A DNA stretch of 64,000 bases from Candidatus Freyarchaeum deiterrae (GTDB lineage: Archaea; Asgardarchaeota; Jordiarchaeia; Jordiarchaeales; Jordiarchaeaceae): NCBI GenBank assembly GCA_037305845.1, contig CP147778.1, forward strand, positions 3,512,205 to 3,576,204, read 5' to 3'. The notes below the pieces were generated by a model. That model did no database searches, was not told where the DNA came from, and saw nothing but the letters and a program-made list of their open reading frames with translations. Position 1 is the stretch's first letter; each line of letters opens with the position of its first letter. This document shows, one piece after another, positions 8,251-43,256 of this stretch. Both the position numbers and the translations under genes were made by a program.

Positions 8251-8296
8251 AGAAAGGCGAATAACGTCACAACTTTTAGTGAATCGCTTTCCTTTC
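8251..8296 (-). promoter_or_regulatory. 5' leader hairpin resembling 22461..22511 and 40025..40069
   Basis: Minus strand reads GAAAGG-AAA-GCGA-T-TCAC-TAAAAGTT-GTGA-CGTTAT-TCGC-CTTTC. Confidence 0.4.
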
Positions 8297-8734
8297 ATTT
8301 CCTTTCTTTTTCTGCTCACTCGTTTGAAGTATTGCTCTTAATGCTACTCTCCGAATACTAGAGAACTCGGAGATTTCTTTCAGTCGTTCGCTTTCCTTGA
8401 AAATTCTTTACTTTTTTTGATAATTGGTTGTCGTTACTAATAATTTGTTCATCTTTTACCTATATTCCTTTCTATTTTCTAATATTTATCAGAAAAATAT
8501 GGTTATTTTACTAAAAAAATATCCACTAAAATGGTATAATATAATTATTAAAATAATAATGAAAGTTACATGAAACGAGAACCCTAAAGCATCCTTTATC
8601 TTAATAAATTAGAAAGTAGGAAACCCCTCTGAAAGAAACAGTTTTGTAAAGCGCTGTTAGCAGAAAGAAGTTTTCGGTTAACGCCCTATACCGCGTATTC
8701 GTTGATTAGAAAAAATAAAAAAATGAGTTGAGGA

Positions 8735-22041: not shown

Positions 22042-22460
22042 AGTAAACCAGAAAACTCAAGGAGGTTATATACATAGCCCCAAAATTTCAGCATTTTCTA
22101 AACATATTTTCTAAGATTGGAGTTAAGTTTGGGAAGTCTTCAACCAGGCTGTTCCTTCTTCAATGCAGCCAGTTAAACTATGAGAACACGTGTCCCCCCT
22201 CCCCCGACAATAACAAAATTTATTAGAAGGTTCAAAGGTACATATAAAAAAATAATTAAAATGTATAAAAATATAATAGTGTTGTATAAATAAAATTTGT
22301 ATGTAAACTATTTAAAGGAAAAGCCATTCCAAAAAAAGGGCGTTGAATAGCTAACTAAAAACCGTTAACGATACGGGTAATACGGGAGAAGAGAAGAGAG
22401 GAGGAATAAACTGAAACAGACAATTCGCCTTTTCTGCAGTTCCAGACTAGAAGTAAAAGA

Positions 22461-22535
22461 GAGGGAAACAAGGACTCCAAAACATACTAACTAAAATTGG
22501 AGCCTTGCCCTACGTAGAAACTTTACTGTTTCTAC
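22461..22535 (+). promoter_or_regulatory. Conserved two-hairpin 5' leader element
   Basis: AGGG-AAA-CAAGG-A-CTCCAA...TTGGAG-CCTTG-CCCT followed by GTAGAAAC-tttact-GTTTCTAC. Confidence 0.65.
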
Positions 22536-22565
22536 AACCTAAAAAAAACTAACCATAAAAACTGA

Positions 22566-24677
22566 GTGAAAAACATGAGAAACATCAGAGCAAATAAAAA
22601 GGCACTAAAGATAGCAGCAGTTCTACTCACGGCAGCAACAATCCTCACAGCGGTTGCCAATACCCAAAGCCAGAGCCAAAGCCAAAACGTGTATCCGTTC
22701 ATCAGCTTATACCTGCAGGGCGTCAACCCGCCAAGTCCCAACAACGCCATCGTTCTACCAAAGGCTGACATAGGTACTAGCGTCACATTTGACCACGATT
22801 ACACTGAAACGATAAATGTGACCGCGGACAACATAGTGATAGACGGAGCCGGACACTCTGTAACAGGCCCCGGATCATCCGGGATCGGCTTCAACTTGAC
22901 CGGCAGAAATAACGTGACCATAAAGAACGTCAATGTCAATGGGTGGCAGTACGGCTTCTACCTGTACCAAAGCTCGAACAACAACATCATAAATAACACA
23001 GCAAACAACAACACAAACAGCTACGGCTTCGCCCTACTCTCCGGTTCGAACAACACTCTTACAAATAACACCGCCACAAACAACACCTACGGCTTCGAAA
23101 TATCCTCCGGCTCTAACAACAACAATCTTACAAATAACACCGCCACAAACAACAACTTCGGCTTCCACCTATACTTCAGCTCTAACAACAATAATCTTAC
23201 GGGTAACACCGCAAACAACAACTCTCAATTCGGCTTCTTCCTAGACACCAGCCCCACCAACAATAATCTTATAAATAACACAGCAAAAAACAACGGTGCT
23301 GGCTTCGGCCTATCCTCCGGCTCTAACAACAATAATCTTACGGGTAACACCGTAAACAACAACTACTACGGCTTCTACCTATACTCCAGCTCTAACAACA
23401 ACATCATAAATAACACAGCAAACAACAACACAAACGGCTACGGCTTCTACATACGCTACAACTCGAACAACAACACTCTTACGGGTAACACCGCAAACAA
23501 CAACACAAACGGCTTCTACCTAAACTCCAGCTCCAACTACAACAATATCATAAATAACACCGCAACATACAACACCAACAACGGCTTCTACCTAAACTCC
23601 AGCTCGAACAACAATAATCTTACTGGTAACATTGCAAACAGCAACACCAACGACGCCGGCTTCTACCTATTCTCCAGCTCAAACAATACTCTTTCTGGTA
23701 ACAACGCAACCAGCAACACCATCTACGGCTTCTACCTAGACTCCAGCTCCAACAACAACATTCTTACAAATAACAACGCAAACAACAACGCCCACTTCGG
23801 CTTCATCCTAGACTCCAGCCCCACCAACAATACTCTTACGGGTAACACCGCAACCAACAACTCAAACGGCGGATTCTACCTACACTACAGCTCGAACAAC
23901 ACTCTTACAAATAACAACGCAACCAACAACGGCTACGGCTTCTTTCTACAATACATCTCAAACAACAATACTCTTTTGGGTAACACCGCAAACAACAACA
24001 CAAACGGCTTCTACCTATGGTTCAGCTCGGACAACAACACTCTTACGGGTAACACCGCAACCAACAACTACTATGGCTTTTATTTGAGGGATGCGTCTAC
24101 GGGTAATAACCTCCTAGGTAATACTGCTTTAAACTGTACTGCTACAGGGTATAACTGGACTGCTGACTGTATCAATAATAATTTTACGGGTAGCGTGGAG
24201 AAGTACTATTTGCGTATAAGCGTCGTCGATCTTCTGGGCTCTCCTATTCCGGGTGCAGATGTTTTGGTTGTGACCGATGGAAGAATTGTGTATTGGACCT
24301 CACACTTTATTGTTACACTCCCCATAAGCCCCCCAACCGACTCTAATGGTGTCACCCCCTGGATTGCGGTCCTCTACCGAACGTTCACAACAAACCAGTC
24401 CATGACTATGAACACCACCAATGTTACCGTGTACTATCAGGGAATCTCCGTCTCGGGAAGCAACCCTAGGACGGCTAACATGTCCACATCACACGTGGAA
24501 ACGTTCCAGGTGGCGACGATGACTGCAACGTCTCTAGCGTTTTCCTCATTGATGCTGTCTAATTTGCAGGGAGGAGGAGGCACCAGTCCGCTGGTTTACG
24601 CTGCTATCATAGGTGTCTTGGGCGTGGTTGTAGTAGCAGGTGGTTTGATCTACTACTTCCGCAGAGTGAAAACTTGA
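22566..24677 (+). CDS. Membrane-anchored parallel beta-helix (NosD/CASH-like) surface protein
   Basis: Signal peptide, about 17 repeats of 22-24 aa, C-terminal TM plus YYFRR. ATG 22575 aligns with the paralog start. Confidence 0.9.
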   Translation: MKNMRNIRANKKALKIAAVLLTAATILTAVANTQSQSQSQNVYPFISLYLQGVNPPSPNNAIVLPKADIGTSVTFDHDYTETINVTADNIVIDGAGHSVTGPGSSGIGFNLTGRNNVTIKNVNVNGWQYGFYLYQSSNNNIINNTANNNTNSYGFALLSGSNNTLTNNTATNNTYGFEISSGSNNNNLTNNTATNNNFGFHLYFSSNNNNLTGNTANNNSQFGFFLDTSPTNNNLINNTAKNNGAGFGLSSGSNNNNLTGNTVNNNYYGFYLYSSSNNNIINNTANNNTNGYGFYIRYNSNNNTLTGNTANNNTNGFYLNSSSNYNNIINNTATYNTNNGFYLNSSSNNNNLTGNIANSNTNDAGFYLFSSSNNTLSGNNATSNTIYGFYLDSSSNNNILTNNNANNNAHFGFILDSSPTNNTLTGNTATNNSNGGFYLHYSSNNTLTNNNATNNGYGFFLQYISNNNTLLGNTANNNTNGFYLWFSSDNNTLTGNTATNNYYGFYLRDASTGNNLLGNTALNCTATGYNWTADCINNNFTGSVEKYYLRISVVDLLGSPIPGADVLVVTDGRIVYWTSHFIVTLPISPPTDSNGVTPWIAVLYRTFTTNQSMTMNTTNVTVYYQGISVSGSNPRTANMSTSHVETFQVATMTATSLAFSSLMLSNLQGGGGTSPLVYAAIIGVLGVVVVAGGLIYYFRRVKT

Positions 24678-24679
24678 AA

Positions 24680-24780
24680 TGCGAGTCAGAGGACTCTTGA
24701 CCGATTATTCGGCAGTCTTGCCCTCGGCTCCTCCTTTTTTTATTTAAGTATTATTGGTGTCGAAAGCGGTATTAGAAAAA
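24680..24780 (+). terminator. Hairpin plus T-tract trailer homologous to 2316..2410
   Basis: gact-cttga-ccga-ttat-tcgg-c-agtc, then ctccttttttt. Confidence 0.6.
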
Positions 24781-39580: not shown

Positions 39581-40024
39581 CCGACTCCGTTTTTTGAGTT
39601 TTTCTTAAAGTTTTTAGAAGAAGGAAAGCTAATTGTTCGTTTGAATACCAAAAATAGCTCTAAAAAAGTTACTGAACTGAAAGCCACAACAGTGAGATGC
39701 AGAACGCATCGCTCTCACCCCGAAAAGAAGCGTTCAATAAAGCTTCCTTCTCGACCTTTCAGTGGTTTAGTTTTACCTTCAAATTGAACATTTTTGCTTG
39801 AGCTCCTTTTTTTGACTTTTCTTTAGTTGCCAATTGAATTAGCACAATAAGGAATGAAGGAAACCATAAATTATAAATATGTTATACACACATTGTCGGG
39901 CAACATAAACTTTTCAATACTAAACCTAACAGAGAGAAGGGACGGAGAAACAGAAAACTCGAAAAAAGAGCCAACTACCTGCCTAATGCTCCGTCTATTT
40001 TTAGCACCCGAATAAGTGAGGTGA

Positions 40025-40096
40025 GAAGGAAAGCAAGGTATCCTAAACTAAACGTGGAACCTTGCCCTTTAGTAGAAACTTACTTTAGTTTCTACT
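40025..40096 (+). promoter_or_regulatory. Conserved two-hairpin 5' leader element
   Basis: AAGG-AAA-GCAAGGT-A-TCC...GGA-ACCTTGC-CCTT followed by AGTAGAAACT-tacttt-AGTTTCTACT. Confidence 0.65.
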
Positions 40097-40134
40097 CAAA
40101 AATGCTAATAAAAAAATAGAATTGAGGAAAAATC

Positions 40135-42978
40135 ATGAAATGCATCAGGAGAAACAAGAAAACCCTAAAGATAGCAACAGTTTTAGCAGCAGTTCTACTC
40201 ACAACCACAATCCTAATAGCGGTTACCACAATACAGAACCAAAGCCAAATCCAGAACCAGAACACGTATCCCCTCATAAACTTGTACCTGCAGGGCATCC
40301 CCCCAAACCCTAACACCGTCATTCAACCAAAGATGGACATCCACGATAACTACGATTTTCTAGGTAACATCAGTGAAACGATAAATGTGACGGGGAACGA
40401 CATAGTGATAGACGGACACGGATACTACCTGCTGGGCACCGGATTTTCCGGGTACGGCTTCAATTTGACTAACAGAAACAACGTAACCATCAAGAACGTT
40501 ATAGTTACAGGGTGGAATCAAGGCTTCCGCCTAATCAATAGCTCGAACAATAATCTTACGAATAACAACGCTACAGGCAACAACATGGGCTTCTTCCTAG
40601 ACACCAGCTCGAACAATAGTCTCACGGGTAACAACGCCACACTCAACGAATACTATGGCTTCGACATATCCACCAGCTCGGGCAACAATAGGCTTTCGGG
40701 TAACATCGCAGACAACAACGACATCTACGGCTTCAACATAGAATTCAACTCTAACAATACTCTTTCGGGTAACACCGCAAACAACAACCAACAAAACGGC
40801 TTCTACCTGGACTCCAGCTCCAACAATAATCTTACGGGTAACTCAGCAAACAGCAACACCTACACCGGATTCTACCTAACCAATAGTCCATCCAATACTT
40901 TTACGGGTAACAATGCCACAGGCAACATCAACAACTACGGCTTCATCCTACTCTCCAGCTCAAACAATACTCTTACGGGTAACACAGCAAACAGCAACAC
41001 TTGGGGTTTCTACCTAGTCTCTAGCTCGAACAACAATAATCTTACGGGTAACACAGCAAACAGCAACATCAACTACGGCTTCATCCTATCCTCCAGCACG
41101 TACAATAATCTTACGGGTAACAACGCCACAAACAACAATTACGGCTTCTACCTAGTCTCTAGCTCGAACAACAATACTCTTACAGGTAACACCGCAAACA
41201 ATAACCCCTCTAGCATCGGTTTCTTACTAGACTCCAGCTCAAACAATACTCTTTCGGGTAACACTGCAAGCAACATCGGCGACGGCTTCTACCTATTGTC
41301 CAGCTCGAACAACAATCTTTCTGGTAACAACGCATACAATAACACCTACGGTTTCTACCTATTCTCTGGCTCCAATAATATTCTTTCCGGTAACAACGCA
41401 ACCAACAGCACCAGCGAAGGCTTCTACCTAGTATCCGGCTCGAACAACAATACTCTTACCGGTAACAACGCAACCAACTGCAACAATGGCTTCTACCTAG
41501 ACACCAGCACATACAATAATCTTACGGGTAACACCGCAAACAACAACGGCTTGGACGGCTTCAGCCTAGTCTCCAGCTCAAACAATACTCTTTCGGGTAA
41601 CAACGCAACCAGCAACGCCTACGGCTTCAGCGTAGACTCCATCTCGACCTACAATAATCTTACGGGTAACACTGCAAACAGCAACATCAACTACGGCTTC
41701 AGCGTAGACTCCAGCTCAAACAATACTCTTTCGGGTAACAACGCAACCAGCAACGCCTACGGCTTCTACCTAGACTCCAGCTCGTACAATACTCTTACGG
41801 GTAACAACGCAAACAGCAACACCGACACCGGCTTCTACCTATCCGCCAGCACGTACAATAATCTTACGGGTAACACCGCAAACAACAACGACATCAACGG
41901 CTTCTTCCTACAATCCAGCTCAGACAATAATCTTACGGGTAACAACGCAAACAACAACAACAACGGCTTCTACCTATCCTCCAGCACGTACAATAATCTT
42001 ACGGGTAACAACGCAAACGACAACGACATCAACGGCTTCTTCCTACAATCCAGCTCAGACAACAATACTCTTTCGGGTAACAACGCCACAGGCAACACCA
42101 ACTACGGCTTCAGCCTAGAATCCAGCTCAAACAATACTCTTACGGGTAACAACGCCACAAGCAACTACTACGGCTTCAGCATACAAGCCAGCTCGACCTA
42201 CAATAATCTTACGGGTAACACTGCAAACAGCAACACCGACACCGGCTTCTTCCTACAATCCAGCTCAGACAATAATCTTACGGGTAACAACGCAAACAAC
42301 AACAACAACGGCTTCTACCTAGGCTCCAGCTCGAACAATAATCTTACGGGTAACAACGCCACAAACAACTACGTCGGCTTCCAATTGATTACGACATCTA
42401 CTGGTAATAACCTCTGGGATAACATTGCTCTAAACACTACAACTGGAGGATACCAACGGAGTATTGACAGTATTAATAATAATTTTACGGGCAGCGTGGA
42501 GGCGTACTATCTTCGTGTGAACGTCACAGATTCGGGAGGTCTACCTTTGTCTGGAGTAGAGGTGCAAGTTGTTTCAAACGGAACAAGACCAGTGTGGTAT
42601 GCTACGCCGCATTTTGGAGGAATGGGCTTGCCAACTGGTTTGGATGGTTTAACGCTGTGGTTCGCTGTGCCCTATCAGACCTACATGGCAGACAATTCTA
42701 CGACTATTAACAACAACACCGTTACCGTGTGGTACTCCACTTCGTCGGAGATAGCCGTTTTCTCAAGCAATCCCAGAACGGGGTTCGACATGTCCGAATC
42801 GCACACGGAAGACTTCACCGTGACTTCCTGGCAACCAATAACGTCTCAAGCAATGCTCCTCGCTACGCTGCTGTTGGCTGGAACGCAAGGTCCTAGTCCC
42901 CTGATTTACGCTGCCATAGGTGTTGTGGGTGTGGTGCTTGTTATTGGTTTGGTCTACTACTTCCGCCATAGGGTGTAA
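40135..42978 (+). CDS. Membrane-anchored parallel beta-helix (NosD/CASH-like) surface protein
   Basis: Signal peptide, about 28 repeats, C-terminal TM plus YYFRHR. Confidence 0.9.
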   Translation: MKCIRRNKKTLKIATVLAAVLLTTTILIAVTTIQNQSQIQNQNTYPLINLYLQGIPPNPNTVIQPKMDIHDNYDFLGNISETINVTGNDIVIDGHGYYLLGTGFSGYGFNLTNRNNVTIKNVIVTGWNQGFRLINSSNNNLTNNNATGNNMGFFLDTSSNNSLTGNNATLNEYYGFDISTSSGNNRLSGNIADNNDIYGFNIEFNSNNTLSGNTANNNQQNGFYLDSSSNNNLTGNSANSNTYTGFYLTNSPSNTFTGNNATGNINNYGFILLSSSNNTLTGNTANSNTWGFYLVSSSNNNNLTGNTANSNINYGFILSSSTYNNLTGNNATNNNYGFYLVSSSNNNTLTGNTANNNPSSIGFLLDSSSNNTLSGNTASNIGDGFYLLSSSNNNLSGNNAYNNTYGFYLFSGSNNILSGNNATNSTSEGFYLVSGSNNNTLTGNNATNCNNGFYLDTSTYNNLTGNTANNNGLDGFSLVSSSNNTLSGNNATSNAYGFSVDSISTYNNLTGNTANSNINYGFSVDSSSNNTLSGNNATSNAYGFYLDSSSYNTLTGNNANSNTDTGFYLSASTYNNLTGNTANNNDINGFFLQSSSDNNLTGNNANNNNNGFYLSSSTYNNLTGNNANDNDINGFFLQSSSDNNTLSGNNATGNTNYGFSLESSSNNTLTGNNATSNYYGFSIQASSTYNNLTGNTANSNTDTGFFLQSSSDNNLTGNNANNNNNGFYLGSSSNNNLTGNNATNNYVGFQLITTSTGNNLWDNIALNTTTGGYQRSIDSINNNFTGSVEAYYLRVNVTDSGGLPLSGVEVQVVSNGTRPVWYATPHFGGMGLPTGLDGLTLWFAVPYQTYMADNSTTINNNTVTVWYSTSSEIAVFSSNPRTGFDMSESHTEDFTVTSWQPITSQAMLLATLLLAGTQGPSPLIYAAIGVVGVVLVIGLVYYFRHRV

Positions 42979-43256
42979 TCCAGATAAGAACATGAATGAA
43001 TGATGAAAGCTTGTGAACCCTTAACTCACTATTACGGGGTTTCGCTTTTCTTCCCTTTCCCTTTTTTTGGTTCAAGTTCTCAGGGCGTTTATCGTTTAAC
43101 TTTTAGATTCCTTTTTCCTAGTTCTCTTTTCGTTTTGTTCTTGCGCTCTTGTCCTGTTTTCTTTTCTCTTCAGAGAGTTTATGTATTCACGACTCACGGC
43201 GGTAAACGACTAGTTAACTGCTGCTTCTATTATTTATTCGATAAATTCTTTGATGA

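Follow-up and report, generated by a model that had tools for sequence, protein, structure and literature searches.

Structured 5' leaders are found on bacterial S-layer and outer-membrane genes, such as slpA of lactobacilli and ompA of E. coli. The iron-responsive element (IRE) is a hairpin with a bulged C and a loop, CAGUGN, that is conserved. To our knowledge, no cis-regulatory mRNA element of an Asgard archaeon has been characterised by experiment, and a literature search listed none; almost nothing is known, either, about the control of the cell surface in these relatives of eukaryotes. Among archaea, examples of long 5' untranslated regions (UTRs) that stabilise mRNA have been described: those of the mtaA and mtaC mRNAs of Methanolobus psychrophilus stabilise these transcripts in a temperature-linked manner (PMC5378194).

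Here we describe two adjacent hairpins that form a compact candidate element of about 75 nt before about 12 genes in three species. We lean towards reading the pair as a cis-acting RNA module in a long 5' leader, putatively read by a trans-acting factor. The bulged hairpin is termed H3 and the second hairpin H4; H1 and H2 are blocks further upstream. Two copies lie in the window, i.e. the whole stretch of 64,000 nt that was analysed. The genome carrying the window, which spans 3,512,205-3,576,204 of a single contig of 3.58 Mb, is termed G000; G002 is Ca. Jordarchaeum madagascariense EB_bin_7 and G005 a third congener. Copies were sought with two covariance models, R1 built on H3 and H4 and R2 on H3 alone, and folds were tested as ViennaRNA minimum free energy (MFE) structures against 200 dinucleotide shuffles per window copy. 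The leaders fall into groups A and B, between which the leader sequence outside the hairpins can barely be aligned.

The hairpins and their surroundings

The features in the window are as follows.

22213-22226, plus strand: candidate BRE/TATA ACAAAATTTATTAG of gene 1, about 350 nt before the ATG; the block is kept in all group-A copies, its function putative
22333-22376, plus strand: kept blocks of the 5' leader, AAAAAGGGCGTTGAA and a small hairpin with CCGT/ACGG arms, H1 (22362-22376), found in group-A copies of two species
22385-22435, plus strand: H2, a purine tract, the AAACTGAAACAGAC motif (22408-22421) and a pyrimidine tract, present in all copies
22462-22511, plus strand: H3 copy 1 (ViennaRNA fold; R1 95.9 bits, R2 71.2 bits)
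22514-22535, plus strand: H4 copy 1, GUAGAAAC, a 6-nt loop and GUUUCUAC, 8 bp (fold and R1)
22536-22574, plus strand: A-rich unstructured spacer with SD-like GAGTGA (22564-22569), from the sequence
22575-24677, plus strand: gene 1, NosD/right-handed beta-helix secreted protein of 700 aa (Pfam NosD 1.6e-49, Beta_helix 4.8e-47)
39868-39881, plus strand: candidate TATA AAATTATAAATATG of gene 2, about 260 nt before the ATG, aligning with AAAAAGTATAAATA of other group-B copies; putative
39941-39995, plus strand: GACGGAG/CTCCGTC arms of the upstream stem of copy 2, then T5; the stem forms in the MFE structure, with a z of only -1.6
40025-40070, plus strand: H3 copy 2 (ViennaRNA fold; R1 64.7 bits), loop 40044-40055
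40071-40096, plus strand: H4 copy 2, 10 bp (ViennaRNA fold and R1)
40097-40134, plus strand: A-rich spacer with SD-like TGAGGA (40123-40128), from the sequence
40135-42978, plus strand: gene 2, NosD/beta-helix secreted protein of 947 aa (Pfam NosD 2.7e-87)

In H3 the outer stem (A)GGG/CCC(U) is separated by the AAA bulge from a CAAGG/CCUUG stem, and a lone bulged A lies between the latter and the inner stem CUCC/GGAG, which carries an A-rich loop; in H4, GUAGAAAC/GUUUCUAC arms close a short loop. Copy 1 of H3 reads AGGG, AAA bulge (22466-68), CAAGG, A bulge (22474), CUCCAA, an A-rich loop of 16 nt (22481-22496) that contains ACUAACUAAAA, then UUGGAG, CCUUG and CCCU. The original prediction, made from the letters of the window, had placed the same fold upstream of both complete beta-helix genes. 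Its coordinates and structure are correct: the MFE structures are precisely those described (-28.4 kcal/mol for copy 1, -28.8 kcal/mol for copy 2), with z-scores of -6.97 and -4.57, and 0 of the 200 shuffles was as stable in either case.

The H3/H4 fold is adopted by 14 of 16 copies (z from -2.4 to -6.6); pairing is lost in the copy at 0.62 Mb (z -1.2). H4 is a near-perfect palindrome with a loop spacing of 4-6 nt across copies, and the distance between the arms of H3 ranges from 3 to about 30 nt. The extremes are the 2.91-Mb copy, with a 3-nt loop in its MFE structure, and the 3.51-Mb copy, with about 30 nt between the inner-stem arms. The length polymorphism of the loop comes from tandem repetition of short units, (ACTA)n and (TAG)n (G000 3505797-3505833 and 3222633-3222654).

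Could the loop carry a signal of its own? Of 16 H3 loops, 13 contain ACUAA[AC], and in several the sequence is UACUAAC, as in the yeast branch-point and the QKI-type ACUAAY motif. The three shortest loops are without the motif, so it is dispensable, and its presence is probably a matter of slippage and common ancestry.

The stems further upstream have fared less well. In all copies a conserved A-rich motif, AAACUGAAACAGAC in group A, stands between a purine and a pyrimidine tract, and the two tracts pair in the MFE structures. The folding energy, however, is no lower than the composition would predict (z mostly about -1, in a range from +0.75 to -2.9), and the arms of a given copy pair no better with each other than with those of other copies (-14.2 against -13.9 kcal/mol; p = 0.33). 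Of the further stems that had been proposed upstream of both hairpin copies (22385-22435 and 39941-39995), the complementary tracts thus remain, whereas H2 finds no support as a specific helix and was rejected as a covarying stem.

Both beta-helix proteins of the window carry a signal peptide. Past their stop codons, by 58 and 84 nt for genes 1 and 2, pyrimidine-rich stretches end in T7 (24735-24741 and 43062-43068); these are likely archaeal terminators. The first of these stretches resembles the 3' arm of H3 (TCTTGCCCT), a resemblance that looks incidental.

A divergent hairpin was also considered before the gene for a 1422-aa surface protein (window 8255-8345, minus strand; GAAAG, GAAA, GCGA … UCGC, CUUUC). 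It has no R1 match, and the 91 nt folded give z = +0.48, for a stretch that ends just before the far side of the proposed outer stem (8251-8370 was the range first given). On this partial fold, we do not regard the hairpin as significant.

Copies in the genome and its relatives

R1 and R2 together find 10-11 clear copies in G000: nine full H3 and H4 copies and one more with H3 only. The R1 matches begin at 3201730, 3222611, 3502698, 3505775, 3510222, 3534661 and 3552226 on the plus strand and lie at 2910459-2910528 and 621677-621754 on the minus strand; the copies at 3.50-3.51 Mb form tandem arrays. Among relatives, R1 has six matches in G002 and one in G005. Every R1 copy stands 30-115 nt before a start codon, on the same strand as the gene.

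Beyond these three genomes, R1 was run on three further congeners, on the order's second family and on 80 distant homologs from JGI metagenomes (at most 46% identity), without a match in any. A degenerate pattern run over GTDB genome contigs returned four loci of the genus Jordarchaeum (three in G002, one in G005) and six bacterial matches, about the number estimated for chance. As far as can be seen from these searches, the element is limited to one genus. Nor did a wider regulon emerge from a generic descriptor (4-bp stem, AAA bulge, 5-bp stem) run over the whole genome: it gave 163 matches against 64-94 in shuffles, and the excess is mostly AT-rich low-complexity sequence.

Of interest is the copy that R2 adds. 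It is an H3 without H4 before a secreted glucose/sorbosone dehydrogenase gene (G000:884790-884831, L135:491-532; Pfam GSDH 7.6e-45), with an inner stem of UUUC/GAAG instead of CUCC/GGAG. The GSDH ortholog in G002 likewise bears H3 without H4 (C413:16681-16721; matched by R1 and confirmed by R2). A related signal peptide (…ALKIA.VL…LLTA…QNQNQ) is common to all hairpin-bearing genes, and because the GSDH gene has both H3 and the signal-peptide type of the NosD family, hairpin and signal peptide behave as a portable 5' module. At least six paralogs with the same N-terminus have no hairpins and other leaders. One NosD-family paralog of G000 lies at 599910.

A marginal R2 match of 15.9 bits precedes a surface gene with Ig domains (Big_7, Big_13; G000:3009608-3009648, L156:1501-1541). 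The GGGGAAACAGGG half is retained in a structurally shifted hairpin of 13 bp (z -5.0), and since AAA pairs with UUU there, the AAA bulge is not universal.

Other subfamilies of the surface-protein family, in the genus and on one metagenome contig, have long leaders of their own, in which a good TATA precedes the ATG by about 130-200 nt and the conserved hairpins are different ones, e.g. GAACGCC…GGGCG.GAUGAC (L029:960-1175; upstream regions of L117 and L121 and of L111, L112, L116 and L120). Long structured leaders may be general for genes of this family. One group-A copy in G002 (C456:285-643, L019) has an intact leader, yet the gene behind it appears to be frameshifted and has two stops after about 70 codons; it is either a pseudogene or an assembly error.

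Comparison with known classes of element

That the fold matches no recognised RNA family is borne out for Rfam 15: a search gave no match in the whole window at gathering thresholds and none in 22200-22620 at E <= 5. Riboswitch, attenuator and protein-binding leader had all been proposed as functions, and of these the last, as a putative role, fits best. H3 and H4 are two independent simple hairpins, in which no multi-helix junction, pseudoknot or invariant unpaired nucleotides were found; the unpaired loop of H3 is hypervariable in length and sequence, against a conserved core of the riboswitch type. As to an expression platform, there is no terminator-like site and no run of T5 or longer after H4, and the three T5+ runs in 14 leaders have no position conserved across groups. 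The SD is not consistently paired in folds of full leaders, and no conserved alternative pairing that could mask it was seen.

Several other likenesses were considered and rejected. H3 has a 3-nt bulge, 5 bp and then a 1-nt bulge, all on the 5' strand, with a continuous 3' strand (GGAGCCUUGCCC); it is not a bulge-helix-bulge (BHB) motif, because the second 3-nt bulge, on the opposite strand and 4 bp away, is absent. It has no G-A pairs and is no K-turn or L7Ae element: the bulge is followed by a C-G pair and then by A-U Watson-Crick pairs. The CRISPR repeat of the genome contains TTCCTCAGTAACGAGGATTGA, which is unlike H3 or H4; three arrays (G000 at about 28,040, 40,126 and 2,674,871) have one common repeat, in tens of copies each. 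A palindromic operator for a dimeric protein was also rejected, for the half-sites of H3 differ by 3-nt and 1-nt insertions and their spacing is variable, with a spacing of 4-6 nt in H4. With unequal arms and variable spacing, H3 fits a hairpin and not an operator.

Conservation and covariation

An identity profile of 13 copies, aligned from -420 to +700, has a mean pairwise identity of 0.69-0.70 in the 5' arm of H3 and again in its 3' arm with H4, against 0.30 in the H3 loop and 0.14-0.43 in the remaining non-coding leader. The signal-peptide codons stand at 0.74-0.80, and the hairpins are thus at about the level of the best-conserved coding parts. The conservation forms an island, with no plateau, which argues for more than a simple relic of recent duplication. 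Further, the hairpins are kept between groups A and B despite leaders that can barely be aligned, and across three species; in the GSDH ortholog pair of G000 and G002, H3 is kept while the flanks have diverged. Going by these sequence comparisons, we take it that the hairpins are real and under selection. The original prediction of a conserved structured leader before surface-protein genes is thereby borne out as a lineage-specific one, and an identity of about 0.70 in the hairpins against 0.14-0.43 in the flanks is not what recent duplication alone would leave.

Do the copies also change in a way that preserves pairing? Over 16 copies, 95.7% of cells are paired, double changes occur in 3 of 21 pairs and the H3/H4 covariation score is reached by 1 of 500 shuffles; for 18 copies of H3 the values are 95-96%, 3 of 13 pairs and 3 of 500 shuffles, all from sequences that are few and related, so that relatedness alone can beat the shuffle control. 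The double changes are A-U to G-C in H4 (three G002 copies) and CAAGG/CCUUG to CGUGG/CCGCG (G005). Covariation evidence for H3/H4 is weakly positive. The argument that the copies differ in sequence but keep pairing is therefore weak, with only three double-changed pairs in 16-18 copies. The stems are conserved chiefly as sequence and little as covariation. Wobble pairs do not indicate the folding strand, because G-U/U-G cells and A-C/C-A cells are equal in number (eight each).

The family is a mosaic. The 2.91-Mb gene (2910066-2910425) resembles window gene 1 (3534779-3535135) in leader and signal peptide and the 3.51-Mb gene (3510339-3510698) in its N-terminal cap, a pattern that indicates recombination, with its breakpoint close to where the signal peptide ends. 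Recombination among paralogs could homogenise the 5' module.

Transcription and leader length

The hairpins are probably part of the mRNA, as several sequence features suggest. On the sense strand the A>T skew rises from about 0 to between +0.3 and +0.5 at about -300 and stays there as far as the ATG, the background of the genome being 0.06-0.10; at gene 1 the rise begins slightly upstream of the leader blocks at 22333-22376. From -280 to -1, the 14 copies have 53 runs of A5 or longer and three of T5 or longer, compared with 26 and 19 from -600 to -331. As the likely terminators of the window genes are T7 runs, avoidance of such runs is what would be expected of a transcribed leader.

Candidate promoter blocks lie well upstream. 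Group A keeps ACAAAATTTATTAG at about -350; it is homologous to a C-rich…AAACA.CAAA.TTATTA block of other paralogs, where the block is 58 nt before the ATG in one case and about 170 nt in others. Group B has AAAAAGTATAAATA at about -275. The genome-wide norm is an SD peak at -20 to -11 and TATA-like words at -60 to -51 (about -55), and by this norm the hairpin leaders are unusually long. Promoter discovery from tRNA upstream regions, k-mer enrichment and an EM matrix gave a signal too weak to place the transcription start site (TSS). With our own weak promoter matrix, A-rich sites directly after H4 score at about the median promoter; if a TATA lay there, at -35 to -46, transcription would start on the conserved SD or beyond it. 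Between H4 and the ATG the spacer is about 30 to 63 nt long and is without a conserved TATA, and in group A H4 ends at -31 to -35. No conserved upstream open reading frame was seen in the aligned leaders, where mini-ORFs such as MKI-stop occur in some copies only. A published wetland metatranscriptome has only 1-20 reads per ORF (PMC11291895), and the rows of its table that were covered include none of the leader-bearing genes.

As an aside on the tRNA set, ARAGORN detects only nine tRNA genes in the complete 3.58-Mb genome. Introns would explain so low a number, in keeping with the unusually many tRNA introns that have been reported for the genome.

Possible roles of the element

We infer both the transcription of the hairpins and the binding of a protein from the sequences of the copies. 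The module would sit in an A-rich 5' untranslated leader of about 230-330 nt, common to mRNAs for secreted and surface proteins of the genus Jordarchaeum (Freyarchaeia): mostly NosD-like beta-helix proteins, one GSDH-type dehydrogenase and perhaps one Ig-domain protein. A trans-acting factor, most likely an RNA-binding protein, would recognise the hairpins sequence-specifically, because both arms and the AAA bulge are near-invariant while loop and flanks drift. The putative bound factor might set mRNA stability, translation or both across the gene set, and the hairpins alone may slow decay from the 5' end. It is a long shot that H3 serves as operator in a 'secretome regulon' that acts after transcription, where a dedicated RNA-binding protein reads the bulged hairpin on mRNAs which also have one type of signal peptide in common. 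Were it true, the mRNAs could be coupled to membrane-proximal translation, or variable surface proteins could be expressed in concert or to the exclusion of one another, and the element would be an archaeal counterpart of the mRNA zip-codes and RNA regulons of eukaryotes.

Does the element act in DNA instead? H3 and H4 might be inverted repeats that a regulator binds as double-stranded or extruded DNA, with a proximal promoter in the A-rich spacer and the hairpins never in the mRNA. The conservation of the stems by sequence and not by covariation speaks for this, as do the equal G-U and A-C counts, the near-palindromic H4 and the median-like scores, in a weak matrix, of the A-rich sites at -35 to -46. 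Yet a bound DNA site does not sit well with an arm spacing that varies from 3 to about 30 nt in H3 and from 4 to 6 nt in H4, or with H3 arms made unequal by the AAA and A bulges; a TATA at -35 to -46 sets the TSS on or after the SD, the spacer varies in length and has no conserved TATA, and the A>T skew and T-run avoidance begin about 200 nt upstream of H3. We regard action in DNA as unlikely, though of the competing accounts it has the best claim. An endonuclease that cuts the leader near H3/H4, leaving a mature mRNA with a protective hairpin at its start, with or without a stable small RNA from the leader, ranks after it and is likewise improbable. What speaks for a transcribed leader applies equally to such processing, the distance from hairpin to SD is nearly fixed in group A, and the genome is rich in RNA-processing oddities; H3, however, with no bulge on its 3' strand, is not a BHB substrate, and it lacks the G-A pairs of a K-turn.

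Next in order, and in our view rather improbable, is that the hairpins have no role and are passive remnants of a recently duplicated leader and signal-peptide module, homogenised by gene conversion among paralogs. The mosaic make-up of the family, as in the 2.91-Mb copy, the tandem arrays at 3.50-3.51 Mb and the scarcity of compensatory changes are what such a history would leave, but the island of conservation in place of a plateau is not, nor is the persistence of hairpins between groups A and B, across three species and in a GSDH pair with diverged flanks; the decaying copy at 0.62 Mb displays what relaxed selection looks like. That the element is a metabolite- or ion-sensing riboswitch or transcription attenuator is very improbable indeed. 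Such a reading would suit a long leader with stable structure and no known family, but the hairpins are simple, their unpaired parts are hypervariable and hold microsatellites, T-runs are absent after H4 and scarce in the leaders, full-leader folds neither pair the SD consistently nor conserve an alternative pairing, no Rfam match appears at E <= 5, and the genes controlled encode surface proteins and no metabolic pathway.

The element links mRNAs of a recombining surface-protein family with that of at least one unrelated secreted enzyme that has the same kind of signal peptide. If the putative cis-acting RNA module is indeed bound by a protein, it would open a way into the post-transcriptional control of this lineage and possibly into its surface variation. 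If it is a stabiliser only, it is an ordinary feature, and its range of one genus limits its weight.

Comparison with described systems

The leaders of slpA and ompA are similar in being long, in having stable hairpins before an accessible ribosome-binding site on surface-protein genes and in their presumed role in stability or translation. There is no homology, however, and H3/H4 differ in being common to about 12 paralogous and non-paralogous genes, with stems conserved in sequence; the surface proteins of slpA and ompA are abundant ones. With the mtaA and mtaC leaders the element has in common that it is archaeal, that the leader, putative here, exceeds 150 nt and that translation is SD-led, the post-transcriptional role being likewise putative; phylum and genes are different, and no similarity of sequence or structure exists. 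The BHB motif is alike in its 3-nt bulge beside a short helix and unlike in its opposite-strand bulge 4 bp away, which H3 is missing. In logic only, there is a likeness to the IRE, a protein-binding mRNA operator that a set of genes has in common: it too is a short hairpin, bulged and with fixed letters in stem and bulge, that is repeated in several mRNA leaders; the H3 loop, unlike that of the IRE, is free to vary, and the binding protein here is putative.
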